A stretch of 64,000 nucleotides of DNA, taken from NCBI GenBank assembly GCA_035575515.1, contig DATLXU010000136.1, forward strand, positions 14,850 to 78,849, given 5' to 3'. Shown piece by piece: positions 2,949-63,892 of the stretch; the first letter of the stretch is position 1; each line of letters starts with the position of its first letter. The position numbers were made by a program, and so were the translations under genes. Source of the stretch: Blastocatellia bacterium (GTDB taxonomy: Bacteria > Acidobacteriota > Blastocatellia > UBA7656). The notes beneath the pieces are model-generated. The model was not told where the DNA came from and did no database searches. It saw only the letters and a list, made by a program, of their open reading frames with translations.

Positions 2949-6011
<3,063 letters not shown>

Positions 6012-20230: not shown

Positions 20231-20785
20231 TCATCTACGTTGTCGCGTCCTCTGATTGAACTTCGGGAATTTCGTGCCCGCGCCTTGCTCGCTGATTCGC
20301 GCCCGCTCTTCGCCAATCAAATGGCGGCGAACCGATGCGCGCAATCGAGGACTGCGCTCGACGGTGAAATGATCCACTAGCAGCATCATCCGATGCCAGC
20401 TCGATTCCAATTCGTCTGCAATGCGTGAGATTTGAGTTATGTCGTAAGGCACAGCCACAACATCGCAACCCAATCGAGCGAAGACCGATAGATAACGAGC
20501 CGTCGCAAGATCGGGGCAGAGCAATCGGCGATTGCCGATCTTTAATTCTATTCCAAGCAGCGTGTGAAGCACTTCGACCGATGAAGTCTTTGACGGCGCA
20601 CGCATTTCATACTGGCGGGTGCGCTGCGAAAGAATCTGGTCGCGATAGATTGCCGATATGGATTGGTTGCCTATCTGGCGCATTATCTCTGCGGCGATAT
20701 CTTCGGCTTTGACCGCGCGGGCAGATTTCGATATGCGTTCCGCTATTGATTCGACGTTGTCGGACTCAGTTACCATTCGGGGCAA
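20231..20785 (-). CDS. hypothetical protein (184 aa) immediately downstream of nuoN
   Basis: The ORF starts 1 nt after the nuoN stop on the same strand. I recognise no motif, and the C-terminal tail is low-complexity. Confidence 0.35.
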   Translation of the reverse strand: MPRMVTESDNVESIAERISKSARAVKAEDIAAEIMRQIGNQSISAIYRDQILSQRTRQYEMRAPSKTSSVEVLHTLLGIELKIGNRRLLCPDLATARYLSVFARLGCDVVAVPYDITQISRIADELESSWHRMMLLVDHFTVERSPRLRASVRRHLIGEERARISEQGAGTKFPKFNQRTRQRR

Positions 20786-22321
20786 TCATTTCTTTTGCAT
20801 GGCTGCCGTTTTTGCTCCGGCGCTTTCGAGCGCGTCTAGCACCCGACCCGGCATGATGCCGAGATACAACGTTCCGAGTATCGCGAGTATCAACCCGGCT
20901 GCGAGCGAGCGAGCGACGGCAGGCGCTTTGAACTCTTGGGCTGGCTCTGCGAAGAACATCGCGACGACTATCCGCAAATAGTAGTACCATGAAATCGCGC
21001 TATTGATTACGCCAATCACAACCAGGACATGAAGCATTGAATTATTAGCCGTCGAGCCTGCGATCCATGCCTGCTTGAAGACGAGGAACTTCGCCATAAA
21101 GCCTGCGGTGAGCGGGATGCCCGCGAGGCTCAACAAAAACAGAGACAGCGCAGTTGCAAGCCCGATGGATTTGAATCCGATGCCCGCGTAATCGCTAATC
21201 TCCGTGCGCGTGTCGCCGCGCCGCGCTATGACTTCGACAATCGCGAACGCGCCTATGTTGATGATGACGTAGCTCAACAAATAAAATGCGACCGACCTCC
21301 AATCGCCCGCGATCATGCCGACGAGCGCGTAGCCTGCATGAGCAATCGAAGAGTATGCAAGCATTCGCTTGACGTTGGTCTGAACGATGGCGACCAGATT
21401 GCCGATTGTCATCGTCAGTATCGCCATCACGATGAGCGCGTTCGTCGTAACCGCTTGGAGCGAACCCATCACGCCCGTGCCTTTTGCAACCGCTGTCGCC
21501 GCAAAGGTCAAAACGAATACGCGCAGAAATGCCGCGAATGCTGCGGCCTTCGAGCCTGTCGAAAGAAACGCGGTGATCGGCGTTGGCGCGCCTTCGTAAA
21601 CGTCCGGCGACCATATGTGGAACGGAGCAGTTGCGACTTTGAACCCGAAGCCTACGAGCATCATCGCCGCGCCTGCAAGCAACATCGGCTCCGAGAATAA
21701 CTGGCCGCTTGAGATGCGGGCCGCGATGTCTTGCAGGTTCGTCGTCGCAGTCTTCATAGCCTGCGAATATGTCGCGCCGTAGATGAACGCGATGCCGTAG
21801 AGCAGAAACGCCGTCGAGAACGAGCCGAGAATGAAATACTTGACCGCCGATTCGTTGGAGCGCAAATCCGATTTGCGATAGCCGCACAGCACGTAGGTAG
21901 AGATTGAAGTAATCTCAAGCCCCAAGAAGATCATTACCAGATCGTTCGCCGCTGACATGAAGAGCATCCCTGTCGTTGCGAACAGCAGCAGCGCAAAGTA
22001 TTCGCCCGTCGGCAGGTCTTCTTCCTTCACCCATCGAAGCGAGATGAGCACAATCAGAATCGCGACGACAAGAAATATCAGCGCAAAGAACAATCGAAAA
22101 TCGTCCGTGACGATCATCCGGTTGAATGATGTTTCGCCGTTGCGCCCCCACAGGCTCACGACGGCTGCGGCAGCGGCTGCAAGCCCGACGAGCGAGATAG
22201 CGCCCGCGATGCGCCGCTCTATCTTGCGCGAGGCGGCGTCAACCATCATTATCACAATCGCGACGGTTGACGTGATTAGCTCAGGCAGTATCGAGTGATA
22301 ATTTATCCCTATCTTGTCCAT
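20786..22321 (-). CDS. nuoN: NADH-quinone oxidoreductase subunit N
   Basis: 511 aa, about 14 TM; antiporter-like subunit pattern. Confidence 0.9.
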   Translation of the reverse strand: MDKIGINYHSILPELITSTVAIVIMMVDAASRKIERRIAGAISLVGLAAAAAAVVSLWGRNGETSFNRMIVTDDFRLFFALIFLVVAILIVLISLRWVKEEDLPTGEYFALLLFATTGMLFMSAANDLVMIFLGLEITSISTYVLCGYRKSDLRSNESAVKYFILGSFSTAFLLYGIAFIYGATYSQAMKTATTNLQDIAARISSGQLFSEPMLLAGAAMMLVGFGFKVATAPFHIWSPDVYEGAPTPITAFLSTGSKAAAFAAFLRVFVLTFAATAVAKGTGVMGSLQAVTTNALIVMAILTMTIGNLVAIVQTNVKRMLAYSSIAHAGYALVGMIAGDWRSVAFYLLSYVIINIGAFAIVEVIARRGDTRTEISDYAGIGFKSIGLATALSLFLLSLAGIPLTAGFMAKFLVFKQAWIAGSTANNSMLHVLVVIGVINSAISWYYYLRIVVAMFFAEPAQEFKAPAVARSLAAGLILAILGTLYLGIMPGRVLDALESAGAKTAAMQKK

Positions 22322-23895
22322 TAACGTTTTTCAGTTGATGCTTGCATCGGCTCATTGCCCGTTTTCGTCGCCGCGACGACGGTGTTGAACCGCTCGCTCA
22401 GATTTTTAATCGTGCGGTCGCTGCGCGCTAGAAAAAGATTCGGGTAGATGCCCATCACGAAAACCAGCACGACTATTGGCGCGAGCGCGAGTTTTTCCCT
22501 GCCGTTGAGGTCAGCGAGTTTTTGGTTTTCGGGATTGTGCGTTTCGCCGAAGATGACTCGCTGGTACATCCAGAGCATATAGACCGCCGAAAGAATCATC
22601 CCCGTCGCGGCGAACGCCGTGAACGTCTTCGAGTACGGAAGCACATTTGATGTGAAGGTGCCGATGAGAATCAAGAACTCGCCCACGAAACCGTTCAGCA
22701 ATGGCAGAGCGATTGATGAGAGCGTGACGATTAAAAACAGAGCCGAGTAAACTGGCATCACGCTGGCGAGACCGCCGAACTCTTTAATCAACCGAGTGTG
22801 GCGGCGGTCGTAAATCATCCCGACGATAATAAAGAGCGCGCCTGTTGACACGCCGTGATTGAGCATTTGATAAAGCGCGCCCTGCATGCCTTGATCGGTG
22901 AACGAGAAGATGCCGAGCACGACGAATCCAAGGTGGCTCACAGACGAATAAGCGACGAGCTTTTTCATATCAGGCTGCACCATCGCAACGAGCGCGCCGT
23001 AAATTATTCCGATGACCGCAAGCGTCGAAATCAGTGTTGCCCATTCGCGCGATGCGTCAGGGAACAGCGGCAGGTTAAATCGCATCAAGCCGTAAGTTCC
23101 CATCTTCAGCAGCACGCCCGCAAGGATGACCGAGCCTGCGGTCGGCGCTTCGACGTGCGCGTCCGGCAGCCACGTGTGAAATGGGAAGAGCGGTACTTTG
23201 ATTAAAAACGCAAGCCCGAACGCCCAGAACAGCCAGCTTTGAGTTCGAGGATCAATCCTCAAGCCTCCCGCTTGGACCGCCTGCGTGATTGTCGGAATGT
23301 CAAAAGTGAAATTGCCGGTTGCGTTCCCGTGCAGGTAATAGACCGCGATTATCCCTGCCAGCATCAGCAGCGAGCCGACAACCGTGTAGATGACGAACTT
23401 GATTGCCGCGTATATCCTTCGCTCGCCGCCCCAGACGCCGATCAGGAAATACATCGGCACGAGCATCACTTCCCAGAAGAGGTAGAACAGGAACAGATCG
23501 AGCGCGATGAAGACGCCGATCATTCCCGTTTCGAGAGCGAGCATCGAGATGAGAAATTCCCGTTGATATTTATGAATCGAGTTCCACGACGAGATGAGCG
23601 CGACCGGCACGAGCAGCGTCGTCAGCATCACGAGCCACAGGCTCAAACCGTCAACGCCGACGTGATACCGCACGCCTAGATTGAAAGCCTCAATCCAAGG
23701 CCTGTCTGTGACGAATTGATAGCCCGCCGCCGAGTCGAACCCGAACGGAAGCGCGAGCGAGACAACAAAGGTCGCAAGCGCGAAGATGAACGCCGTCCAT
23801 TTTAGCGTGCTTTCGTTCGCGCGCCCGACGAGGATGAGTGCTACGACGCCGGCCAGCGGCAGGAAAGTTATTATCGAGAGCAGGTAATCGGTCAT
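22321..23895 (-). CDS. nuoM: NADH-quinone oxidoreductase subunit M
   Basis: 524 aa antiporter-like subunit. Its stop overlaps the nuoN start. Confidence 0.9.
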   Translation of the reverse strand: MTDYLLSIITFLPLAGVVALILVGRANESTLKWTAFIFALATFVVSLALPFGFDSAAGYQFVTDRPWIEAFNLGVRYHVGVDGLSLWLVMLTTLLVPVALISSWNSIHKYQREFLISMLALETGMIGVFIALDLFLFYLFWEVMLVPMYFLIGVWGGERRIYAAIKFVIYTVVGSLLMLAGIIAVYYLHGNATGNFTFDIPTITQAVQAGGLRIDPRTQSWLFWAFGLAFLIKVPLFPFHTWLPDAHVEAPTAGSVILAGVLLKMGTYGLMRFNLPLFPDASREWATLISTLAVIGIIYGALVAMVQPDMKKLVAYSSVSHLGFVVLGIFSFTDQGMQGALYQMLNHGVSTGALFIIVGMIYDRRHTRLIKEFGGLASVMPVYSALFLIVTLSSIALPLLNGFVGEFLILIGTFTSNVLPYSKTFTAFAATGMILSAVYMLWMYQRVIFGETHNPENQKLADLNGREKLALAPIVVLVFVMGIYPNLFLARSDRTIKNLSERFNTVVAATKTGNEPMQASTEKR

Positions 23896-23900
23896 AGTTT

Positions 23901-23932
23901 TGTAGGGGCAGGGCTTGTCCCTGCCCGAATGG
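23901..23932. repeat. palindromic repeat family 1, copy A (TGTAGGGGCAGGG-CTTGT-CCCTGCCCGAAT)
   Basis: Hairpin GGGCAGGG/CCCTGCCC in the nuoM-nuoL spacer. Confidence 0.7.
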
Positions 23933-23984
23933 CCGTTAGGCCATGATCAATTTCAAATTCGCGCGAATCATCGCACTTCGCGCG

Positions 23985-24013
23985 ATTCGGGCAGGGACAA
24001 GCCCTGCTCCTAC
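23985..24013. repeat. palindromic repeat family 1, copy B (inverted copy of A with one mismatch)
   Basis: ATTCGGGCAGGGACAAGCCCTGCTCCTAC. It forms an inverted-repeat pair with copy A 52 bp away and overlaps the nuoL stop. Confidence 0.7.
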
Positions 24014-26130
24014 TTCATTATGAAGTAGCCGATTATCAACAAAGCTCCGAGCACGACGAGGGCGACGTATCCGCGCGCAAGGCCCAGTTGCATGTAGCGC
24101 ATCGCGTTGCCGATACGGCTTGCGAGATAAGCCGCGCCGTTCACCGCGCCATCAATGATGCCAACGTCAATGATCTTCCAGAGCAGGTTTGTCGAGCCGA
24201 CCTTGATCGGCTGCACGATGGCGGCGTTATAGATTTCGTCAACGTAGTACTTGTCTTCGAGCAGCCGCGGCGGCTGCCAAAGCGGTTTGCGGTTGAACCA
24301 CGACCACCCGATGCCTATGCCAAGAAAAGCGATGATGACAGAAATGACGGTCAGCATAATCTCTGTGCCGTGACCTTCATCTTCTGCGGCGGGCGCAGCG
24401 TTTGCCGCGCTCGCGGCTTTCTCGTGCGCGGCAGGCTCGCCGATGATCTGACGGATGGGCGAGCCGGAATGCGCATCCTGCGGATGCGCGATTGACGGCT
24501 CAAGTATGCGCTCGAAATAATTCGGAATCTTTCCGCCCGACAAGCCTTCCGGCACGCCGAGATAGCCCGCGAAGACTGCGCCGATAGCCAGCACGACGAG
24601 CGGCACGGTCATTGAACGCGGAGACTCGCGCGGCGGCCCTGCGTGATGCTCGTGCTCGTTGGGTCCGACTCCGTGCGGGGTGACAGATTGATGCGACTCA
24701 TCGCTGTGTCGCGTGTCGTGATGCGCGGCGTGTGATTCACTGAATCGTTCGCTGCCCCAGAACGTCAGCACCATCAAGCGAGTCATGTAAACGGCTGTGA
24801 GCAGCGCGGTGATTGCGCCGACTATCCACAGAATCTTCGGCCACGCGTCGGGCAAGCCTGCGGTTGTGAATGTGCGGAAGAGAATTTCATCTTTGCTGAA
24901 GAAGCCTGAAAGCAGCGGCACGCCTGAGATGGCAAGCCAGCCGACGAGCATTGTCGCAAACGTCACGGGCATGAATTTTTTCAACCCGCCCATTCGCCGC
25001 ATATCCTGCTCGTGATGCAATCCTACAATGACTGAGCCTGAGCCTAAAAAGAGAAGGGCTTTGAAGAATGCGTGAGTGAATACGTGAAAGATGCCTGCTG
25101 CGAATGCGCCCACGCCGCACGCCAAAAACATATAGCCTAGCTGCGAGATTGTCGAGTAGGCGAGAACTTTTTTGATGTCCCATTGGGCGAGTCCGATTGT
25201 CGCGGCAAACAGCGCGGTCGCTGCGCCGATGATTGCGATTATCATCATCGCCATCGGCGCGTGGATGAATATCGAGCTTGCGCGCGACACCATGTAAACG
25301 CCTGCCGTCACCATCGTTGCCGCGTGAATGAGCGCGCTAACAGGAGTCGGGCCGGCCATCGCGTCGGGCAGCCATACGAATAGCGGTATCTGCGCGCTCT
25401 TGCCCGTCGCGCCAATGAATAACAGGATGCCTATCGTTGTTAATCCCCCGGCGAAGATGGCCGACGCAGTGAACGGATCGGCCAACTGCGTCATCGCCCA
25501 GTTGAATGCGCCCTGAGTGCCGCGCGCCGGGTCGCTGAAATAAAAGATCGTGTGCGCCTGCGAAAACAGCAGCATCACGCCGAGCGCGAATCCGAAGTCG
25601 CCTATGCGGTTGACGATGAACGCTTTCTTCGCTGCGTCGTTCGCGTAGTCGCGCAGGAAGTAATAGCCAATCAGCAGGTACGAGCAAAGCCCTACGCCTT
25701 CCCACCCGACGAACATCAGCAGGAAGTTGTCGCCAAGCACAAGCGTCAGCATCGCAAACATAAACAGGTTCAGGTAGGCGAAGAATCTGTAGTAACCCGT
25801 GTCGCCATGCATGTAGCCCGTAGCGAAGACGTGAATCCAGAAGCCGACAAATGTGACGAACAGAATGTAGATGCCCGACAGCGAATCGAGCAGCAGCGCA
25901 GCATCAGCGCGGAACTGCCCGACGCTTATCCAGGTGAACAGGTATTCGTGGATTTTCGTACCGGCTTCTAGGGCTTCGCGATTTGCAAAGAAGACGTAGA
26001 ATGAAAGAACCGCCGACACGGCGACGGTCGAGCAGGCGATGAAGCCGATGGCGCGTTCGCCCATCCGTTTGCCAAACAACCCGAGTATCAATGCGCCTGC
26101 GAGCGGCGCTAGAATTATCGCGGCTAACAT
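24010..26130 (-). CDS. nuoL: NADH-quinone oxidoreductase subunit L (with His-rich insertion)
   Basis: 706 aa antiporter-like subunit with a long C-terminal region and a His-rich segment SESHAAHHDTRHSDESHQ...HEHH. Confidence 0.9.
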   Translation of the reverse strand: MLAAIILAPLAGALILGLFGKRMGERAIGFIACSTVAVSAVLSFYVFFANREALEAGTKIHEYLFTWISVGQFRADAALLLDSLSGIYILFVTFVGFWIHVFATGYMHGDTGYYRFFAYLNLFMFAMLTLVLGDNFLLMFVGWEGVGLCSYLLIGYYFLRDYANDAAKKAFIVNRIGDFGFALGVMLLFSQAHTIFYFSDPARGTQGAFNWAMTQLADPFTASAIFAGGLTTIGILLFIGATGKSAQIPLFVWLPDAMAGPTPVSALIHAATMVTAGVYMVSRASSIFIHAPMAMMIIAIIGAATALFAATIGLAQWDIKKVLAYSTISQLGYMFLACGVGAFAAGIFHVFTHAFFKALLFLGSGSVIVGLHHEQDMRRMGGLKKFMPVTFATMLVGWLAISGVPLLSGFFSKDEILFRTFTTAGLPDAWPKILWIVGAITALLTAVYMTRLMVLTFWGSERFSESHAAHHDTRHSDESHQSVTPHGVGPNEHEHHAGPPRESPRSMTVPLVVLAIGAVFAGYLGVPEGLSGGKIPNYFERILEPSIAHPQDAHSGSPIRQIIGEPAAHEKAASAANAAPAAEDEGHGTEIMLTVISVIIAFLGIGIGWSWFNRKPLWQPPRLLEDKYYVDEIYNAAIVQPIKVGSTNLLWKIIDVGIIDGAVNGAAYLASRIGNAMRYMQLGLARGYVALVVLGALLIIGYFIMK

Positions 26131-26196
26131 TTTTCCTCAAAGAGTTGATCGTAAATCAGGACGGCATTTCTCTCGTCACGATTTACGATTCACCAT

Positions 26197-26499
<303 letters not shown>

Positions 26500-26502
26500 G
26501 CC

Positions 26503-26575
26503 TTTTGTCCTTTATCATTTGTCGCTTGTCCCTCGTCTTCTGCAAACGATCAATGACAAAGGACAAGCGGCAAAG
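26503..26575. repeat. palindromic repeat family 2 copy (TTGTCCTTTATCATTTG ... CAATGACAAAGGACAA)
   Basis: Imperfect inverted repeat filling the nuoJ-nuoK spacer. Confidence 0.6.
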
Positions 26576-26577
26576 AA

Positions 26578-27090
26578 TCAATCTCCTTCGCGTCTCGCCA
26601 ACACCATCGCGCCAACGACTGCCATCAGTATCAAGACCGATGTTACTTCAAACGGCAGCAGGTAATCTGTAAACAGCGCCGTGCCGATATTCCACGTAGT
26701 GCCGACAGCCGTATCGGCCTGCTCAGCCGGAATCGAAGGAAACGCAATTTGCTTGTCGAGCGGCAGCGCGTAAAACATCTCGGCTATCAATAACCCCGCG
26801 AACGGAATTGCGAGGTAGCGAAGCCACTTGTGCTTCTCGATGTGCGGCACATCCTTCGGCTCGTTCAAGAGCATTATAACGAAGACGAACAGCACCATTA
26901 TCGCGCCCGCGTAGACGACGACCTGAATCGCCGCGATGAACTGCGCGTGCAGCGTCAGATAGAGCGCCGACAGCGACGCGAGCGTGACAATCAACGACAG
27001 CGCGCTGTAGAGCGGGTTGCGCTGAATCAATATGTTCAGCGCGCTCGCTACGGCGATGACTGCAAAGATGATGAAGAGAGTCTGTTCCAT
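26578..27090 (-). CDS. nuoJ: NADH-quinone oxidoreductase subunit J
   Basis: 170 aa, 5 TM, NuoJ/ND6-like. Confidence 0.85.
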   Translation of the reverse strand: MEQTLFIIFAVIAVASALNILIQRNPLYSALSLIVTLASLSALYLTLHAQFIAAIQVVVYAGAIMVLFVFVIMLLNEPKDVPHIEKHKWLRYLAIPFAGLLIAEMFYALPLDKQIAFPSIPAEQADTAVGTTWNIGTALFTDYLLPFEVTSVLILMAVVGAMVLARREGD

Positions 27091-27097
27091 CTTCGAC

Positions 27098-28126
27098 CTA
27101 TCGAATGAATATTAATAAAGTCGCCGTCGCGATGATGTTGATGATCGCAAGCGGCAGCAGCCACTTCCACCCGAAGCGCATCAGTTGATCGTAACGGAAT
27201 CGCGGCAGCGTGAACCGTATCCACATCGCAATGAAAATGAGCACGAGCACCTTAATCACGAAATAGACAAGGCTCAGAATCGGCAGTTGCTCGACGCCAG
27301 GCCCGTTCCATCCGCCTAAAAAGAGCGTCGTGCCTATTGACGCGGCGGTGATGAGGTTTAAGTATTCCGCCATCTGAAAGAGCGCGAACTTCATCGAAGA
27401 ATATTCCGTGTGATACCCGGCGACCAGCTCCGAATCGGCTTCAGGCAGATCGAATGGCGTGCGATTGGTTTCCGCGAGCGACGCGATGTAGAAGATTATG
27501 AAGCCGAATGTACCGAGCGGAAAACGAAAGATATTCCATCGTGGTATGAAGCCGAACCATGTGCCGCTCTGGCTCTTGGTAATTTCTACGAGGTCGAGCG
27601 AGCCTGTCCACAACAGCACGCTCACGATTGCAAGCCCAAGCGCAAGCTCGTAGCTAATCATCTGCGCGCTCGAACGCAGCCCGCCCATCAGCGAATACTT
27701 GTTGTTTGACGACCACCCGGCCAGAACTATGCCGTACACTCCGAGCGACGTGAGCGCGAAGACGTAAAGCAATCCGATGTTCATCTGCGTGACGTGCAGC
27801 GGGATCGTGCGCCCGAACAGATGAATCTCGCTGCCCCACGGGATAACTATCAGCGACATCATCGCGGGAACGACTGAGACTGCGGGCGCGATGATGTAGA
27901 GCCAGCGGTTTGCTTCGAGCGGGATGATGTCTTCCTTGAAGATGAATTTCAGCCCGTCAGCCGCCGGTTGAAGCAACCCCCAGGGGCCTACGCGGTTCGG
28001 ACCGACGCGCAGTTGAATCCAGCTCATCACCTTTCTTTCCATAAAGGTCAGGTAGGCGACGGCTGTGACTAATGCGAAGAGAGTGATAAGGATCTGAATT
28101 GCCCATCCGAGCAGTTGGTCTATCAT
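27098..28126 (-). CDS. nuoH: NADH-quinone oxidoreductase subunit H
   Basis: 342 aa NuoH/ND1 pattern ([27 protein letters not shown]). Confidence 0.9.
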   Translation of the reverse strand: [342 protein letters not shown]

Positions 28127-28180
28127 AAGGAGTGACCGTGTATTGCCAGCTTTATGATCATCACCGCAAGCGTCTCCGGT

Positions 28181-28567
28181 TTACTTTGCGGCCCATTCGA
28201 GTATGCCCTTGCGCCAGACGTAAACAAGCCCGACGAACAGCACGACCATAAACAGCATCATCTCGCCGTAGAAGAGGTATTTCAACGTCCTGTAGGCGGG
28301 GTCGCTAAGGACGCGCGGGAAGACGACGGCCCAAGGCACTAGAAAGACAGCTTCGATGTCGAACAGCAGGAAGACCATAGCGACGAGGTAGAACTTAACC
28401 GACTGACGCTCGCGCGCTGTGCCTACCGGCTCGACTCCGCACTCGTAAGGCATGAGCTTTTCGCGCGTCGGGCGATTGCGGCCCGCGAGTCGCGAAAGAA
28501 TAATGATGGCTGTTGCCATGCCGACCGCAAAGATGAAGATTATTAAAATCGGAACGTAGTTGATCAT
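28181..28567 (-). CDS. nuoA: NADH-quinone oxidoreductase subunit A
   Basis: 128 aa, 3 TM, NuoA/ND3 pattern (PYECG). Confidence 0.85.
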   Translation of the reverse strand: MINYVPILIIFIFAVGMATAIIILSRLAGRNRPTREKLMPYECGVEPVGTARERQSVKFYLVAMVFLLFDIEAVFLVPWAVVFPRVLSDPAYRTLKYLFYGEMMLFMVVLFVGLVYVWRKGILEWAAK

Positions 28568-28761
28568 TGCTGCGGCAGTCTCTTTTTATAAGAACTTTGC
28601 CCGGCAATCTGCGCGCCCACAGACGCGAAACGGATCGCCGGCTAAGACTAGGCATCTTATCGCTTGGCGAAATTGAGTGTCAAGCAACGGTAGTGCCCTA
28701 ATCCTGTGTTGCTGTGCAAAGGATAGTAGGGGCGATTGGCGCGTGGTGCGCTTCGCGCGGC

Positions 28762-28781
28762 GCGGGCTTGTCCCTGCCCGC
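28762..28781. repeat. palindromic repeat family 1, short copy C (GCGGGCTTGTCCCTGCCCGC)
   Basis: Shares the core GGGCTTGTCCCTGCCCG with copies A, B and D. It lies upstream of nuoA. Confidence 0.55.
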
Positions 28782-29084
28782 GACCCGCAAGCGGGTTCCC
28801 CGCGTCAGCGCGATGAAAGAATGCGGTATTTACCGAATGCTTTCATTGCCTTCGGCAATCCGGGCAGCCCTTGTGGCTGCCCCTACAATCAACTGCACGC
28901 CGTCAATTAATCAGCCGCACACCTTTAGACACTGCCCAAGCAACGATAGAAGCGCAGGGCGCGGAAGACTTCACCAGACGATTCAGCGCGTTCAACAAAA
29001 ATATTGTTGCGCGGATTTGCTTCGAGTAACATCGGCGATGTAACTGCCCTCGCCTGAGGCCCTTGCCCCGCGTTGATTCGCAGC

Positions 29085-29459
29085 ATGACTTTCACTTGCG
29101 ATTATTGCAGCGCCGATTTGAACAGGCGATGGCCCGATGCGCAAACTGCGGCGCGCCGTTTGGCCGCGATAGCGGGCGTGCGCCTGAGGACCGCTCGTGC
29201 CCTTATTGCAGCCGGAAGTTACTGGCGCTCGCCAGTCTCGCTTGCAGTTATTGTGGCCGCCGCCTGCCCGAAGACTACATCAAAGCGCGAGGCAGATTTG
29301 AAACGACTCACCAAAACCGATGAGAGCAGCAGGAAAGTTGAAGAAGAGGCCAGCCAGATAGAGCGCCTGAAAGAGCGTCGCAAACGGCGCAAAGGTTCTT
29401 CTGTGGTCAATATGCTCGATATCGGAATGATATTCGATTTGACCGACCTGTTTTCCTAA
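29085..29459 (+). CDS. hypothetical protein; the reading frame is uncertain (an overlapping alternative frame at 29128..29323 encodes a Cx2C-x16-Cx2C-x10-Cx2C zinc-ribbon-like peptide)
   Basis: Two overlapping plus-strand frames are both open with similar GC3. The longer frame has a charged coiled-coil-like C-terminus. Confidence 0.3.
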   Translation: MTFTCDYCSADLNRRWPDAQTAARRLAAIAGVRLRTARALIAAGSYWRSPVSLAVIVAAACPKTTSKREADLKRLTKTDESSRKVEEEASQIERLKERRKRRKGSSVVNMLDIGMIFDLTDLFS

Positions 29460-29485
29460 AATGTGATGACTGCTGAAAGACACAG

Positions 29486-29520
29486 AGGCGCAGGGCTGTT
29501 CCACATAGCCCTGCGCCTCT
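29486..29520. terminator. bidirectional terminator-like hairpin between convergent genes
   Basis: GAGGCGCAGGGCT-gttccacat-AGCCCTGCGCCTC (13-bp perfect stem) followed by TTCGTCACTC. Confidence 0.5.
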
Positions 29521-29556
29521 TCGTCACTCACAAGCAGGAAGGGGGGCAGCGCGCGC

Positions 29557-30414: not shown

Positions 30415-30628
30415 TCAGGCGTCTCCTTGGCTCTTTATCAGAGTATGGGGATGTCGCTAATGTCCCACAGCAACACCCTGATCTTACTTTTTTTTACTGC
30501 TACCCTGCTTGTTCGTGAGGGGTGTACTTGCTCAAGTCTTGATGTGCGAGGCTATCACACGAAGGGGCCAATGGCAATAGAGATGGGACAATCTGACGCG
30601 GATTTATGAAAATTGCAACAATATAGCT

Positions 30629-30710
30629 GGTCCTTTGCCCTCAGTCCCTTGTCATTAGTGGTGGGCTTTTCTGCATCAAGCAAATGACAAATGACAAAGG
30701 ACAAAGGACC
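30629..30710. repeat. palindromic repeat family 2 copy (GGTCCTTTGCCC...CTTGTCATT / AATGACAAATGACAAAGGACAAAGGACC)
   Basis: Imperfect inverted repeat with tandem AATGACA/AAGGACA units. Confidence 0.55.
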
Positions 30711-30721
30711 AGAGACGAAGC

Positions 30722-30910
30722 TTAGGTGTGGATCGAGTGGCGCGGCACCAGTATCCTGTAGATGAGATAGCCGACCAGAAGCAGAAAGCCGACGACTGTC
30801 GCTATCCATATCAGGTACAGGAAGAAGCCGACGATGTTCAACACAATCTTCAACACCCAGATGGCGACGATGAACGCCACTATGCCGAACAAAAACTTTA
30901 CGAATCCCAT
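30722..30910 (-). CDS. small 2-TM membrane protein (62 aa)
   Basis: An AAGGAG RBS lies 7 nt upstream of the ATG. Sequence is MGFVKFLFGIVAFIVAIWVLKIVLNIVGFFLYLIWIATVVGFLLLVGYLIY. Confidence 0.45.
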   Translation of the reverse strand: MGFVKFLFGIVAFIVAIWVLKIVLNIVGFFLYLIWIATVVGFLLLVGYLIYRILVPRHSIHT

Positions 30911-30981
30911 AACGAACTCCTTTCAAACTCTTGGCCGCGAAGTCCGCTCCAACAATCGCTTAGTATCGCGGTCTTTCTTGC

Positions 30982-31584
30982 TCACTCGTTGACGAGCGAG
31001 GCTGAAAATGCCTGACGAGCCGTGCTCGCTTCTTCGATATTAACGACATAAGAATCAATGCTTGCTTGATCGCCTGCCGCGTTTTCGCTGCTCAGACTCT
31101 GCGGCGCGCGAAGAGCGTGGCTTGCTGATGAATTATTGCTCAAACGATTTGCTGCCACGCCTGTGCTGATGATCAGCAGGATAAACAGCACTCGCCGTAG
31201 CGTGAAGATTCGCGGTTGCCTGCCATACTCCGCGCGGTGTGTGTAGTGCCGCACAAGCTCGACGCTTGCATAAAGAGCAAGCAGGAGAATCCAGTAGCGG
31301 CCATAGAGTTGCACCGCATTCAAATCGGGATTCGCGCGGCTGGCGAGAAAAAGTCCGCCCACGGCTACGAACACCATTCCGTCTATCGCGGTGCGAGGCT
31401 TGCGCTCGATGGCAAATCCCACGATGCGCATCGCTCCGGCGCAAATCAAAAAGACGGGCCATAATCTCGTAAAGAACATTGCCGCGCCTTCGCCCGTTTG
31501 AAGTATGAGAAAGAGTAATCCTGCGCCTATCAGCAAAAGCCCCGCCGCGAGCATTATTCGATTGTTGCGCGCAGCATCCACCAA
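30982..31584 (-). CDS. hypothetical polytopic membrane protein (200 aa)
   Basis: Four or five hydrophobic helices. It sits 5 nt downstream of the preceding gene on the same strand. Confidence 0.55.
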   Translation of the reverse strand: MVDAARNNRIMLAAGLLLIGAGLLFLILQTGEGAAMFFTRLWPVFLICAGAMRIVGFAIERKPRTAIDGMVFVAVGGLFLASRANPDLNAVQLYGRYWILLLALYASVELVRHYTHRAEYGRQPRIFTLRRVLFILLIISTGVAANRLSNNSSASHALRAPQSLSSENAAGDQASIDSYVVNIEEASTARQAFSASLVNE

Positions 31585-40617: not shown

Positions 40618-40809
40618 CTTTTAAGAACTGGAAACAACCTGACCTTTTCATCAGCGCGAGTCTCAATATCGTTAAAGAAGTCGACTTTATAAGCCTGCGC
40701 GTCAAATCTTAATCGTATTGTTTCTTCCATCCTGGCTCTGCCCGAAATCAATTGACTATAGCTCCCGCTTCTAGTAAACCTGCGTCAGGTTGTATTGGAG
40801 GTGGGGCGA

Positions 40810-41372
40810 TGAAAATCAAAGGCAACATTCTGCTTTCACGATTAGCGTTTGTAAAAGAACACTTCGGCGAGGAGGCGCTCGACAGGGTCATCGAATCCTT
40901 GCCTGCCGAAGACCGGGCGACGCTCAGGGGAATGATTAGCAACGTCGGCTGGTATTCATTCGACATTGGCAAGCGGCTCGATGAAGCTATAGTTAAAGTC
41001 CTCGGCAAAGGCGACATGAAAATCTTTGAAGATATAGGCGCATCTTCTGCCGAGCAGAATCTCACGACCGTTCACAATCTCTTTCTCAAGCTCGGAAATC
41101 CTCAAGCCTTTCTCGCTCAAACGCCAGTGCTATATCGCCTCTATTACGATATCGGCAGGAGAGAGTACGAGCCGACGGGACCAACTTCAGGCGTGATGAC
41201 GACTTACGATGCAGAAACCTACTCTACTGCGGATTGCTTGACAGTCATCGGATGGTACAAGAAAGCCCTCGCGATGTGCGGCGCTAAAAACGTAGTGATG
41301 ACGGAAGAGACCTGTCGCGCAAGAGGCGGTGACTTTTGCCGTTATCGAATATCGTGGCAGATGGATAGTTGA
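40810..41372 (+). CDS. hypothetical protein (187 aa); family unresolved
   Basis: A GGAGGTG RBS precedes the ATG at 40810. I cannot assign a family confidently from the sequence alone. Confidence 0.5.
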
Positions 41373-51757: not shown

Positions 51758-52495
51758 ATGTCAGCAGAGTCGGCAAACTTAAATCTTGCGCCGTGTCCGG
51801 ATTGCGGCGGCACCGGATGGGAGTTAGTCGAAGGTCGCGGCGTTCGTCCCTGCCGCTGCAAAAAAGCGGCGCGTTCGGAAGTTCTTCTCTCGCAGGCGCG
51901 CATACCCGCCCGTTTCATGCATTGCTCGTTCGATAACTTCGAGCCGCTTCAACCGTCGCTCTATCGCGCGCTGATGAACGCGCGCAAGTTCGTCGACGAG
52001 TACCCGCTCGTTGATGTCGGGCTGTTATTTTTGGGAAGCTGTGGGGTGGGGAAGACTCATTTAGCGGTTTCTGCCTTGAAGGAGTTAATCAAGAAAGGGA
52101 TTCCCGGACTTTTTTACGACTTCCGCGATCTGCTCAAAGAGATTCAAGACAGCTACAACCCGAACACGCACACTTCGGAATTGAAGATTCTGACTCCCAT
52201 CTTCGACGCAGAGGTGCTCGTGCTTGACGAGCTTGGCGCAAGCAAGCCGACCGAGTGGGTACAGGAGACTATCACTCACATCATCAACAAGCGATACAAC
52301 GACAAGAAAGTAACCATCTTCACCTCGAACTACCTCGACATGCCAATCGGCACAGCTTACGGCGAGACGCTCACGGAACGCGTGGGTGTGCGATTGCGTT
52401 CGCGCCTTTATGAGATGTGCCGCCGCATTCTCATTGAAGGCGACGACTACCGCAAGATTATGGACAGCAAGCGCGGCGGGCGCTTCTCGTCATAG
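51758..52495 (+). CDS. DnaC/DnaI-like AAA+ ATPase (putative helicase-loader-type protein) with N-terminal zinc ribbon
   Basis: CPDCGGTGW...CRC ribbon; Walker [11 protein letters not shown]; Walker B VLVLDELG. Confidence 0.7.
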
Positions 52496-60053: not shown

Positions 60054-60548
60054 ATGGCTATGGAAACGGCGACAAACGATTCTGTGCGGTTGCGACGTGC
60101 AACGGCGGATGACGAATCTTTTCTGTTTGAGTTGTATCGAAGCGTGCGAGCCGAAGAGATGGCCGCATGGGGATTAGATTCAGCGCAGCAGGAGATGATT
60201 TTGAAGTTACAGTTCACGGCTCAACAGCGCCACTACGACATAGCTTTTGCGGGGGCCGATCACCAAATCATAATTCTCAATGAGCAGCCAGCCGGAAGAA
60301 TTATGGTTTATCGGTCTGAGAGCGAGGTTCGGCTCGTTGACATCGCTCTTTTGTCGGAGCACAGAGGAAAAGGCGTTGGGGCTATGATAGTCAGTTCACT
60401 GATTGAAGAATCGCGGGCGGCCAGCAAGCCTGTCACGCTCCATGTTGCAAAGGATAATCGCGCCGCTCGGCTCTATGAGCGGCTTGGGTTTCAAATAACG
60501 GGCGATACTGGCAGCCATTATAAAATGGAGTGGTGGCCTAAAGATTAA
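60054..60548 (+). CDS. GNAT-family N-acetyltransferase
   Basis: 164 aa. The acetyl-CoA-binding motif region is RGKGVGAMIVSSLIEES...RLYERLGF. Confidence 0.8.
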   Translation: MAMETATNDSVRLRRATADDESFLFELYRSVRAEEMAAWGLDSAQQEMILKLQFTAQQRHYDIAFAGADHQIIILNEQPAGRIMVYRSESEVRLVDIALLSEHRGKGVGAMIVSSLIEESRAASKPVTLHVAKDNRAARLYERLGFQITGDTGSHYKMEWWPKD

Positions 60549-60579
60549 TCAATCGAGTTAATCAATCGAGCGGGGATTT

Positions 60580-60885
60580 ATGAATATGCCGGAGCGTTTT
60601 TCTATTGATATGTTCTCAGATTGCGTGAATACGAAGTTCGTGGTGCATTACGGCGATTCGCAAACAGCGAATCTTGAGCTTGTTAGCGTGACAGATGTCG
60701 GATCGTCGGCTCGCCAGGTTCAGTTCTCTCTGGTATTTGTGGGGCGCATCAATGGCGCAATCGAGCAGAGAATTTACCGCCTTGAGCATGAAAAGCTCGG
60801 CCAGCTCGACCTGTTTCTTGTTCCCATCGGCATGGACAAAAACGGCGTGCAGTACGAAGCCATTTGCAATTACGTGATTGAATAG
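60580..60885 (+). CDS. hypothetical protein (101 aa); cytoplasmic paralog of the Tat-secreted protein at 61509-62006
   Basis: Shares the pattern Y-x-L-E/Q-H-E/A-K-L-G-x-L/F-x-L-F-L/I-V-P with the 165-aa minus-strand ORF. Confidence 0.5.
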   Translation: MNMPERFSIDMFSDCVNTKFVVHYGDSQTANLELVSVTDVGSSARQVQFSLVFVGRINGAIEQRIYRLEHEKLGQLDLFLVPIGMDKNGVQYEAICNYVIE

Positions 60886-60886
60886 C

Positions 60887-61426
60887 ATGGAAATCGGACA
60901 AAAGAGAATCGCGCTCGATGATTCACGGGTCATAAGTTTCAGGCCCACAGCGCCGGAGGACGAACCGTTTCTCCAATCAGTCTATGGCAGCACGCGACTT
61001 GAAGAGCTTGCGCTCACGAACTGGAGCGAAGAACAACGTAATGCCTTCATTAAGATGCAATTCAACGCTCAGCAGATTCATTACCGCGAGTATTATCCGA
61101 GCGGCGAGCAATTCATCATTCTCGCAGATGGCAATGCTGTAGGACGTCTATACGTCGCCGAGATTGAAAAAGAGATACGCATACTCGACATAACCGTTCT
61201 TCCCGAACGCCGAAGCGCAGGCATAGGAACGCCAATCATTAGAGAATTGATGAACGAGGCGACGAGGATCGGAAAGCCGCTTCGCATTTACGTCGAAAGC
61301 TACAACCGCTCGCGCGGATTGTTCGAGCGGTTGGGGTTCGTGAAGTCGGGCGAGAGCGGCTACAGCTACCTGATGGAGTGGCGGGGGGAGAGACCCGCGG
61401 CAGCGCGCGAAGAGCGCGAGCAATGA
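60887..61426 (+). CDS. GNAT-family N-acetyltransferase (paralog of 60054-60548)
   Basis: The ATG lies 2 nt after the upstream stop. Motif region is RRSAGIGTPIIRELMNEA...GLFERLGF. Track start 60878 is a TTG extension. Confidence 0.75.
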   Translation: MEIGQKRIALDDSRVISFRPTAPEDEPFLQSVYGSTRLEELALTNWSEEQRNAFIKMQFNAQQIHYREYYPSGEQFIILADGNAVGRLYVAEIEKEIRILDITVLPERRSAGIGTPIIRELMNEATRIGKPLRIYVESYNRSRGLFERLGFVKSGESGYSYLMEWRGERPAAAREEREQ

Positions 61427-61508
61427 CGACTCCATCGCTAGTGACAGCTACGCCTGCGCTCTTCGCATGATCTATTACTGCCTTCGCTGCGAGCGATAGT
61501 TTTGTGGA

Positions 61509-62006
61509 TCAGGGATTAACGCGATTGATGATCGCCGTGCAGGTCGTCCCTGATCCTGCGCTCGCATCGCCCGGCACTATGAACAACTGAAACTTGCCGA
61601 GCTTGGCGTGCTGCACCGCATAAGTGTTCTGTCGCAAAGAGAGGGCTTGTGAGCCTGCGAATTTGAGGGCAAAGCATTCTTTTGTGCTCCTGCCCGTTCC
61701 CTTGACATAAGGCGGGTTGAGGTTCTGCACCTCAATTAAAATAAGGTCTCCAAGCTTCACATCGTTTGAAGAGAAGCTGTAGGTTGTCATAAGGGTATTT
61801 GTGAACATCTCCCTTGTGATATTTGCGAGCGGATCCTTGAGCGACTCTGCGGGAATCTCCGAGCCGATACCTGATCCAAGACGTTTCTTGTAGCCGCCCT
61901 GAGCAAAGGCTGAAGCGCTGAATCGCCCCGTAGCCAGTGCCGTTAAACCCATAATGCTGCCTGCTCTGAGAAAGCTGCGTCTCGAAGTTATCATTTTCCC
62001 CTCCAA
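61509..62006 (-). CDS. Tat-signal secreted hypothetical protein (165 aa)
   Basis: Twin-arginine motif SRRSFLRAGSIMGLTALATGRFSASAFA. The C-terminal 100 aa are homologous to the ORF at 60580-60885. Confidence 0.6.
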   Translation of the reverse strand: MEGKMITSRRSFLRAGSIMGLTALATGRFSASAFAQGGYKKRLGSGIGSEIPAESLKDPLANITREMFTNTLMTTYSFSSNDVKLGDLILIEVQNLNPPYVKGTGRSTKECFALKFAGSQALSLRQNTYAVQHAKLGKFQLFIVPGDASAGSGTTCTAIINRVNP

Positions 62007-62097
62007 AGAGATTTAGGATGCCTGATGCCTCGTGGACATTGTTGCGAGTCTAAGGCTTCAGTCGCGAGCATTCAACCCAAATTATTCTCACCAAGTA

Positions 62098-62126
62098 TTG
62101 ACTTATCTTGTATCAATGTATAGAAT
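62098..62126 (+). promoter_or_regulatory. sigma-70-like promoter candidate (TTGACT-N17-TAGAAT) for the tail-collar gene array
   Basis: Lies in the AT-rich divergent spacer, about 160 nt upstream of the ATG at 62284. Confidence 0.4.
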
Positions 62127-62283
62127 CGCTGCCACTGAAAGTAGTATTACATGAAGTGATGTATTGAAGACCTCCGGTTGGGGATAAGTTCAAGCAGTCC
62201 ATCAAGGCGTTAGGTCACGTCTGGCCTCGTTAGGTCTTTCTGTTGTTTAGCGGTTGGGCAAATAAGCTAGGAGGAAAAAGATA

Positions 62284-62787
62284 ATGGCTGAACCTTTCCT
62301 GTCAGAAATCAGAATCATGAGTTTTGTCTTCGCGCCCAAAGGCTGGGCGCTTTGCAATGGGCAACTTCTGCCCATCAACCAGAACCAAGCGCTGTTTTCG
62401 CTGTTGGGCACGACCTATGGCGGCGATGGTCGTGTGAACTTCGCATTGCCCGACCTGCGCGGGCGAGTCCCCATTCACATGGGCAGCGGGCACACGCTTG
62501 GCGAACGAGGCGGCGAACAGGCGCACACGCTTTCGATTTCCGAATTGCCGACGCATACGCATGTGCTGGTTGGAAGCAACAACGCCGCAACAACCGACAC
62601 ACCCGCAGCGAACCTCGTCTTGGGTCAGCCCGGTCTGGATCTGTATCGCGCGCCTACCAGCCTCGTAGGCATGGACCCCGGCACCATCGCAAATGTCGGC
62701 GGCAGCCAGGCGCATCTCAACATGCAACCGTTTCTGACGCTGTCGTTCTGTATTGCGCTTCAGGGCATCTTCCCCAGTCAGAATTAA
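62284..62787 (+). CDS. phage tail collar domain protein (Mdp/microcystin-dependent-protein-like), paralog 1
   Basis: AGGAGG RBS. The N-terminus MAEPFLSEIRIMSFVFAPKGWALCNGQLLPINQNQALFSLLGTTYGGDG and C-terminus GGSQAHLNMQPFLTLSFCIALQGIFP are conserved collar-domain blocks. Confidence 0.85.
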   Translation: MAEPFLSEIRIMSFVFAPKGWALCNGQLLPINQNQALFSLLGTTYGGDGRVNFALPDLRGRVPIHMGSGHTLGERGGEQAHTLSISELPTHTHVLVGSNNAATTDTPAANLVLGQPGLDLYRAPTSLVGMDPGTIANVGGSQAHLNMQPFLTLSFCIALQGIFPSQN

Positions 62788-62797
62788 GGAGGAAACA

Positions 62798-63298
62798 ATG
62801 GCACAACCTTATGTTGGAGAAATCAGAATGTTCGCCGGAAACTTCGCTCCGGCAGGCTGGATGTTTTGCGAAGGCCAATTGCTGCCTATCTCCGAAAACG
62901 AGACGTTGTTTCAATTGATAGGCACGACCTACGGCGGCGACGGAGAGTCAACCTTCGCATTGCCCGACCTGCGAGGCCGCATCCCGATTCATCAGGGCAA
63001 TGGCTTCGTGCTTGCCGAGACGGGAGGCGCGGAAGAGATTACGCTTACCGTGCAACAAATTCCCGCTCATAGTCATGCATTGCTTGCTTCAGCCGATCCA
63101 TCCAGCGCCCGCTCGCCGCAAAATAACGTTCTTGGACGCACAGGCGCAGAGGCTTACGCTTCTGAGTTCACGCCGCAAGTCTTGTCTCCGCAAAGCATGT
63201 CGGCAGTAGGAGGCAGCCAGCCGCATACGAACTTCCAGCCGTACCTTTGCATTGACTTCATCATCTCGCTGTTCGGAATCTTTCCGAGCCAGACGTAA
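62798..63298 (+). CDS. phage tail collar domain protein, paralog 2
   Basis: An AGGAGG RBS precedes the ATG at 62798. It has the same conserved N- and C-terminal blocks and a divergent middle. The track start 62753 is an extension. Confidence 0.85.
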   Translation: MAQPYVGEIRMFAGNFAPAGWMFCEGQLLPISENETLFQLIGTTYGGDGESTFALPDLRGRIPIHQGNGFVLAETGGAEEITLTVQQIPAHSHALLASADPSSARSPQNNVLGRTGAEAYASEFTPQVLSPQSMSAVGGSQPHTNFQPYLCIDFIISLFGIFPSQT

Positions 63299-63379
63299 AA
63301 AGAAGCTTTGCAGTTGAAAGCACACAGGTGATCGTTTCGATGTTCGAGGTTCATAAGGCAAAAGATAAGGAGAACTTTC

Positions 63380-63892
63380 ATGGCAGACCCTTTTGTAGCT
63401 GAAATTCGCATCTTTCCTTTCAACTTTGCTCCGCAAGGCTGGGCCTTTTGCGATGGCCAGATACTTCCGATTTCACAAAACACGGCGCTGTTTTCGCTGT
63501 TGGGCACAACCTACGGCGGCGACGGCAAATCGAATTTTGCGTTGCCTGATCTGCAGGGGCGCGCGCCGATGCATCCGGGACAGGGGCCAGGACTCTCATT
63601 GCATGATCTCGGAGAGACGGGCGGAAGCGAGACAGTTACTCTCCTGGAATCTGAGATACCATCGCACAGCCACGGCGTCAGCATGTCGGTGCGACCCGCT
63701 GATAATCTCGATCCCGGCGGACTTGCTCTCGGCACGGGCAACAACGTCTATGTCGCGCCGGGTAATCAGGTCTCTTTCTCGGGCAACGCGTTAGCGCCAG
63801 CAGGCGGCGATCAGCCGCACAACAATATGCAGCCGTACCTGACGTTGAATTTCTGTATCGCGCTGCAAGGCGTCTTTCCGCCTCGCTCCTGA
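63380..63892 (+). CDS. phage tail collar domain protein, paralog 3
   Basis: AAGGAG RBS; MADPFVAEIRIFPFNFAPQGWAFCDGQILPISQNTALFSLLGTTYGGDG ... GGDQPHNNMQPYLTLNFCIALQGVFP. Confidence 0.85.
   Translation: MADPFVAEIRIFPFNFAPQGWAFCDGQILPISQNTALFSLLGTTYGGDGKSNFALPDLQGRAPMHPGQGPGLSLHDLGETGGSETVTLLESEIPSHSHGVSMSVRPADNLDPGGLALGTGNNVYVAPGNQVSFSGNALAPAGGDQPHNNMQPYLTLNFCIALQGVFPPRS

Follow-up and report, generated by a model that had tools for sequence, protein, structure and literature searches.

A nuoA-H-J-K-L-M-N cluster encoding the membrane domain of complex I, without linked peripheral-arm genes, in a Blastocatellia bacterium

The subject of this study was a complex I (nuo) gene cluster in a 64,000-nucleotide stretch of DNA from a Blastocatellia bacterium, a soil organism of an uncultured acidobacterial lineage (contig DATLXU010000136.1, positions 14,850 to 78,849), referred to here as the window. 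The cluster encodes the seven membrane subunits of the enzyme in the order nuoA-H-J-K-L-M-N and is followed by a gene for a 181-aa soluble protein. We read the locus as the membrane-domain operon of one canonical proton-pumping complex I whose nuoB-G and nuoI genes lie elsewhere, and put the probability of this reading at about 60%. An earlier note on this DNA had offered two possibilities, a split operon or an extra membrane-arm module with another electron-input partner. The choice still lies between a split operon and an extra membrane arm, with the split favored, but the other electron-input partner found no support. NuoH and NuoA retain the residues that face the quinone-reducing (Q) module, and the nearest relatives of the cluster lie in operons with nuoEFG or nuoG.

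Under the split reading, the cluster would be an operon with a promoter region of its own ahead of nuoA, supplying NuoA, NuoH, NuoJ and NuoK, which make up the part with the E-channel and the quinone channel, the three antiporter-like pumps NuoL, NuoM and NuoN, and the 181-aa protein. The peripheral arm, comprising NuoB, NuoC, NuoD and NuoI for quinone reduction and NuoE, NuoF and NuoG for NADH oxidation, would be encoded elsewhere in the chromosome and assemble onto NuoH and NuoA in trans, and the cell would have no membrane arm other than the one from this locus. The putative ancestor is a nuoA-B-C-D-E-F-G-H-J-K-L-M-N-X operon, X being the 181-aa gene, from which B-G was removed between nuoA and nuoH.

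Identity of the subunits and the missing peripheral arm

Eight co-oriented open reading frames (ORFs) occupy the minus strand from 28567 to 20231, nuoA-H-J-K-L-M-N and then the 181-aa ORF. The gene order and the gaps of 54 bp between nuoA and nuoH and 7 bp between nuoH and nuoJ, as claimed in the earlier note, agree with the ORF coordinates. These gaps leave no room for nuoB-G and nuoI at their usual places. The seven genes were identified using Pfam and NCBIfam, and each ORF matched the expected complex I family. nuoA (28181..28567, minus strand as are all the genes that follow) encodes 128 aa of the ND3 family (PF00507, 118.9 bits). nuoH (27098..28126, 342 aa, annotated HXG95032.1) encodes the quinone channel and E-channel subunit of the ND1 family, with 414.9 bits for PF00146 and 356 for NF004741 against a cut-off of 305. 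It is followed by nuoJ (26578..27090, 170 aa, ND6 family; PF00499, 140.5 bits) and nuoK (26197..26499, 100 aa, ND4L family, PF00420; NF004320 120.7 bits, cut-off 57). The three pump subunits are encoded by nuoL (24010..26130, 706 aa, ND5 family; TIGR01974 701.9 vs 407.5 and NF005141 708 vs 556), nuoM (22321..23895, 524 aa, ND4 family; TIGR01972 634.6 bits vs 263.8) and nuoN (20786..22321, 511 aa, ND2 family; TIGR01770 389.5 bits vs 332.6), the last overlapping the nuoM stop by 1 base. NuoH, NuoK, NuoL, NuoM and NuoN scored above the curated NCBIfam Nuo cut-offs. NuoA and NuoJ fell below their NCBIfam equivalog cut-offs, and PF00146, PF00507, PF00499 and PF00420 all scored far above their gathering scores. 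The cluster holds one nuoL, one nuoM and one nuoN. A '2M' complex I with an extra pump was considered and ruled out by the single nuoM. NuoL contains an insert of about 75 residues between the equivalents of E. coli K399 and D542.

The subunits were aligned to those of E. coli and 36 positions were counted that we took to be key for proton pumping, the E-channel and the quinone-cavity loop of NuoH. Two further NuoH positions were not counted since the wrong E. coli residue had been listed for them. Conservation was found at 33/36 positions. In E. coli numbering these include E144, D178, K229, H254, K342, K399 and D400 of NuoL, E144, K234, K265 and E407 of NuoM, E133, K217, K247 and K395 of NuoN, E36 and E72 of NuoK, Y59 of NuoJ, and K46, E51, D79 and E81 of NuoA. 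In NuoH, E36, R37, E157, R209, D213, E216, E220, E228 and R291 are conserved, and the loop between transmembrane helices 5 and 6 keeps its acidic and basic residues. The exceptions are NuoL D563 (G), NuoL K551 (Q) and NuoH H208 (N). A near-complete operon of the Pyrinomonadaceae, described below, also departs from E. coli at all three (G, N and N, respectively). Among solved structures, T. thermophilus Nqo8 and M. smegmatis NuoH are the closest to the window NuoH.

NuoB and NuoD dock onto NuoH and NuoA, which also build the quinone channel, and we know of no role for either membrane subunit without NuoB and NuoD. Since both are present with intact channel residues, we argue that genes at another locus provide a canonical Q module. 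Models of related enzymes fitted poorly. The Fpo models were below their NCBIfam cut-offs (FpoH 309 vs 475, FpoL 396 vs 1050, FpoK 111 vs 145, FpoJ 34 vs 110), Mrp and Hyf models were far below theirs, and Pfam detected no MrpE/F/G-like or hydrogenase-like gene among the neighboring ORFs. Judged by sequence, the seven proteins are predicted to be canonical complex I subunits and the locus a functional, conserved membrane-arm operon.

The window was examined for peripheral-arm genes using E. coli NuoB, CD, E, F, G and I as tblastn queries, which gave no match at E≤1. Pfam found no complex I family in the other larger window ORFs that were scanned. The search was extended by reading the flanks from contigs of the same population, 99.98–100% identical to the window, which added 8.56 kb on the left and 9.89 kb on the right. 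Neither flank contained a Nuo homologue, and NuoB-G of the Pyrinomonadaceae operon, used as queries against the window and its flanks, found no match. The span free of peripheral-arm genes is thus about 82 kb in total, reaching about 29 kb to one side of the cluster and 45 kb to the other. The earlier note had reported nuoB-G and nuoI as missing from the locus, which these searches bear out, and had named their presence just beyond the window as the finding that would overturn its claim; the flanks did not contain them.

Candidate partner loci were sought in metagenomes. The orphan nuoC-nuoD loci L146 and L141 were rejected as they belong to Armatimonadota. L154, considered as a B-C-D-E-F partner without nuoA, was rejected because a divergent nuoA is present and its relatives form the near-complete Pyrinomonadaceae operon. 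The NuoD match P0258 was checked for origin in the window's own samples and came from a different sample. Armatimonadota (Fimbriimonadia) are another phylum with scattered complex I genes, since their contigs carry just nuoC-nuoD, or a lone nuoD behind a 2-oxoacid dehydrogenase E2 gene (L146 126-1818; L141 6473-7888).

The locus was then compared among assemblies. Apart from the source metagenome-assembled genome (MAG), four NCBI assemblies and one Logan run carry an identical NuoH in the same gene order, which makes six assemblies in all. The window matches a 179,679-bp annotated contig, 'MAG TPA: Blastocatellia bacterium' (locus tags VNN73_), in which MutL is HXG95025, the small ORF HXG95026, NuoL HXG95029, NuoH HXG95032 and Lon HXG95043. 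Among the best 120 NuoH matches, the closest relatives (70–83% identity) are MAGs named Blastocatellia or Acidobacteriota. The gene order recurs in Blastocatellia relatives whose NuoH is 73–81% identical. In two relatives with NuoH 75% and 81% identical, the same cluster lies in the same neighborhood, in the order Lon, NrdR, an LPG-synthase-like protein, an extracytoplasmic function (ECF) sigma/anti-sigma pair, an M23 peptidase, nuoAHJKLMN, the small ORF and a convergent mutL. Because gene order and flanking synteny are kept at 75–81% NuoH identity, the arrangement is old and maintained under selection.

An artificial joining of two loci, which the earlier note had allowed for, is excluded by the recurrence of the locus in six independent assemblies. 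It is also extremely improbable that the cluster is some other assembly artefact or a decaying operon remnant. The long-read relative L009 does show fragmented nuoL, nuoM and nuoN gene calls, but tblastn recovered full-length matches to all three genes there, and the fragments look like frameshifts, which we take to be long-read errors. In the window every ORF of the cluster is intact, functional residues are conserved, and GC content runs through the cluster without a break.

A sigma-70-like promoter candidate (28654..28683, minus strand; TTGACA-18-TAAGAT, 10/12 consensus) lies 87 bp upstream of the nuoA ATG. It comes from a consensus scan that found 9 such sites in the region against 5.6 expected, and is weak evidence. 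The spacer between the M23 peptidase gene and nuoA (28568-29556, ∼990 bp) is unusually long and has G+C-rich palindromes. It contains short ORFs only, none with a Pfam match, and an Rfam scan of it returned nothing, as did Rfam and tRNA scans of the 64-kb window.

Operon layouts in the clade and the choice between readings

To place the cluster, a NuoH alignment was searched against one genome per species and a NuoD alignment against JGI metagenomes (80 loci), and the loci were labeled using tblastn. The NuoH scan gave one Blastocatellia locus among the matches listed. In the loci examined from the complex I clade of the window, nuoJ directly follows nuoH and nuoI never lies between them. The order H-I-J is found instead in Bacteroidota, Ignavibacteria and others. 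Terriglobia have A-CD-E-F-G-H-J-K-L-M-N, lacking B. Methylomirabilota and L032 have A-CD-E-F-H-J, lacking B and G, L041/L042/L132 have A-B-C-D-E-F-H-J, lacking G, and L049/L076 have A-E-F-G-H-J, lacking B, C and D. L111, L163 and L175 stop after nuoE. Throughout the series nuoA remains the first of the membrane genes. Even operons with a clear NADH-oxidising enzyme thus lack other essential genes, so that subunits encoded in trans are normal in the clade. The clade shows a graded break-up of the operon. At one end only nuoI is gone; in between, B, B and G, or B, C and D are missing; and A-H-J-K-L-M-N, which has lost the whole B-G block but retains nuoA at its head, is the extreme end of this series.

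Unrelated genes were observed within some related nuo operons. A SIMPL-domain gene lies between nuoE and nuoF (L177 11843-12730) and an AhpC/redoxin gene between nuoM and nuoN (L188 7508-8104). In L164 (1325-2401 and 2960-3793) small ORFs stand between nuoD, nuoE and nuoF; by eye, one is HicA-like and another SnoaL-like.

The sister operon of the cluster was traced through L154, whose metagenomic NuoD is from Pyrinomonadaceae, a Blastocatellia family. Relatives on long contigs carry a near-complete nuoA-B-C-D-E-F-G-H-J-K-L-M... operon without nuoI. Identity between the window and this operon is 54–56% for NuoH, 57–58% for NuoA, 53–54% for NuoJ, 72–73% for NuoK and 56–60% for NuoL. A neighbor-joining tree of NuoH plus NuoL united the window type, Pyrinomonadaceae and the metagenome lineages L188 and L187 in 100/100 bootstraps, with the window type sister to the other three. 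Taken singly, NuoL recovered this clade with 100% support and NuoH with 21%, the NuoH-only tree leaving its deep nodes unresolved. These sister lineages carry nuoG or nuoA-G directly attached to the membrane genes. In L187 (1-2449) the membrane-arm operon begins with nuoG right after a ribosomal protein Thx gene, the break falling between nuoF and nuoG.

The 181-aa protein links the window type with L187 and L188. Its gene (20231..20776, minus strand; annotated hypothetical protein HXG95026.1) starts with an ATG 9 nt past the nuoN stop. A 184-aa reading begins at TTG 20785, directly past that stop, and was called unrelated in the earlier note, a description that did not hold up because the family follows nuoN in three deep lineages. 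In the window-type relatives L001/L003/L007/L009 a homologue always stands directly after nuoN. More distant homologues occupy the same position in L188 (53% identity; nuoG-H-J-K-L-M-(AhpC)-N-X-GATase) and L187 (43% identity; nuoG-H-J-K-L-M-N-X-GATase). The gene is absent from Terriglobia loci that extend past nuoN. Neither Pfam nor NCBIfam has a match to the protein. When 1.84 billion cluster representatives were searched exhaustively with HMMER, the family came to only 149 clusters at 50% identity, with a conserved core, TLLGxELKxGxxRxxCPDxxTARYLxxFAxxG...PYDxT, that is nearly invariant across three aligned window-type sequences. An AlphaFold2 model (predicted local distance difference test score, pLDDT, 89.9) gave no significant match in the PDB. 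Gene linkage suggests that the protein is probably an accessory subunit or an assembly factor of complex I specific to this clade. As a candidate for a new bacterial accessory or assembly protein of the enzyme, this family after nuoN is the most useful lead to come from the locus.

The split reading is favored because it fits the graded series, and because window-type NuoH matches and complete-operon NuoD matches come from differently named MAGs. Among the best 120 matches of each search, the named NuoH matches were only 'Blastocatellia bacterium' or 'Acidobacteriota bacterium' MAGs, the named NuoD matches were only 'Pyrinomonadaceae bacterium' MAGs, and no MAG was seen with both cluster types. 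A 7.9-Mb Blastocatellia contig of the window type, which carries MGA9768786.1, was also missing from the best 120 complete-operon NuoD matches, a weak argument since that list ends at 89% identity. These same observations speak against a possible, though rather unlikely, explanation in which the locus encodes a second, alternative membrane arm beside a near-complete Pyrinomonadaceae-like operon. The cluster would then be an old paralogue, minus B-G, that shares the peripheral arm and yields a second isoform, for example for other pH, salt or quinone conditions. No Pyrinomonadaceae appeared among the best 120 window-type NuoH matches, so that the supposed paralogue is not universal in the class. 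Several points nevertheless weigh for the second arm and against the split. A deep split within one class parts the window type from its sister, the complete-operon type, and window NuoH is 56–59% identical to that of Terriglobia, so that Pyrinomonadaceae, although of the same class, are no closer. The depth of this split would also fit an old paralogue. For NuoL, Pyrinomonadaceae are clearly closer to the window than Terriglobia are (45–47%). A duplication with later deletion of B-G would be a simple route for evolution to take, and in Salinispora, Streptomyces, Kocuria and Peredibacter nuoAHJKLMN is an extra copy beside a complete operon. For acidobacterial MAGs, 'one or more nuoACDHJKLMN operons' have been described (Hausmann et al., bioRxiv 10.1101/197269). 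Acidobacteria often have several nuo clusters, and second nuo clusters were present at the edges of L036, L038 and L070. Finally, nuoB-G and nuoI of the source genome, or of any window-type genome, were never observed, so their existence there is something we infer. It is doubtful, going further, that A-H-J-K-L-M-N-X is an exchangeable second arm competing for a shared peripheral arm in two isoforms, with the 181-aa protein as a new lineage-specific accessory subunit or assembly factor.

It is very improbable that the cluster works as a membrane module without a canonical peripheral arm, either as a redox-independent antiporter like Mrp or with electron input like that of Fpo, Mbh or Hyf. The absence of any peripheral-arm gene within the span searched and the co-encoded uncharacterised protein would suit such a module, and a partial operon in marine actinomycetes was proposed, without experiment, to be a salt-adaptation proton pump (PMC6676996). 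Against it, the interface and channel residues checked in NuoH and NuoA are intact except for NuoH H208, which is N as in Pyrinomonadaceae; the Nuo models pass where the Mrp, Fpo and Hyf models fail; no neighboring gene is MrpE/F/G-like or hydrogenase-like; and the sister lineages have nuoG or nuoA-G attached to their membrane genes.

Split complex I operons are not rare. The genes are colocalised in only 86% of genomes and split in 14% (PMC4453560), and most clades show 'a mix of split and single cluster' (PMC12361115). We found nothing specific in the literature on complex I of Blastocatellia and Chloracidobacterium, no acidobacterial entries in the supplements of two complex I surveys, and no acidobacterial nuo genes in PLSDB. 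For annotation, the locus shows that scattered nuo genes are no ground for recording a Blastocatellia genome as devoid of complex I or as having a 'partial, non-functional' one.

Other features of the window

Several features away from the cluster were recorded. At 30555-31584 on the minus strand, a 200-aa LiaF-TM ORF (30982-31584) is followed by a 123-aa ORF (30555-30926). Contigs L001-L003 of the same population have this region called as 200 + 165 aa. At the same site two relatives (L007 5792-7513, L009 6255-7976) encode a single 573-aa LiaF-TM + DUF4097 protein, so the gene looks split or truncated in the population of the window. A 1020-aa sigma-54 activator (2949-6011, minus strand) has a long N-terminal TPR array replacing the receiver domain; same-population contigs retain this gene, with a called length of 1005 aa. 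A 206-aa ORF (40752-41372, plus strand) has a weak match to DUF2378 (E = 6.7e-06, 26.4 bits vs a cut-off of 22.2), a domain otherwise associated with Myxococcus. An IstB-like ATPase ORF of the IS21 helper family (51758-52495, plus strand) adjoins ruvA, and no IstA transposase was seen beside it. A small island at about 60054-63892 has three phage-tail-collar (PF07484) proteins in tandem, along with two GNAT acetyltransferases and two DUF6916 genes. A short way past the window end (L094 10567-19916) lie a Y1 transposase and a CLIPPER/Big_9 repeat protein of 2634 aa.

Comparison with known systems

Like canonical complex I (T. thermophilus Nqo7, 8, 10-14; E. coli NuoA, H, J-N), the window has each of the seven membrane subunits once. 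It differs in that the operon is without peripheral genes, NuoL exceeds its E. coli counterpart by about 90 residues, and an extra conserved 181-aa gene follows nuoN. The Pyrinomonadaceae operon, its sister in the tree, shares the long NuoL (710–759 aa) and the lack of nuoI, but has B-G, and its NuoH is only 54–56% identical. Acidobacterial partial operons ('nuoACDHJKLMN', bioRxiv 10.1101/197269) and the Terriglobia A-CD-EFG-H-J-N operons belong to the same clade and resemble the window in lacking nuoB, in having nuoA at the head and in never placing nuoI between H and J. The window also lacks C, D, E, F and G, and the Terriglobia loci are without the 181-aa gene.

The same gene set and order, membrane subunits only, is found in the marine actinomycetes Salinispora, Streptomyces SM17/SM18 and Kocuria (PMC6676996). 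Their cluster accompanies a complete nuoA-N operon as an additional copy and has a hypothetical ORF between nuoA and nuoH, whereas the window has no ORF there and is closest in sequence to acidobacterial relatives. Of the actinomycete matches examined, the best (Nonomuraea, 44%) sits in a canonical operon. In Bdellovibrionota, a different phylum, a syntenic A-H-J-K-L-M-N cluster is lineage-wide, and a 'split arrangement' of nuo genes was reported (PMC13147790), a likeness that we draw from the published description only. There nuoAHJKLMN is present in all members studied, and in Peredibacter it stands beside a complete operon, with 37.5–41.5% identity between the two (PMC13147790). Should the acidobacterial cluster prove to be a second membrane arm, it would be a further case of the unexplained nuoAHJKLMN modules of actinomycetes and Bdellovibrionota. 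nuoAHJKLMN clusters have thus already been described in marine actinomycetes and Bdellovibrionota, and the acidobacterial one adds a member.

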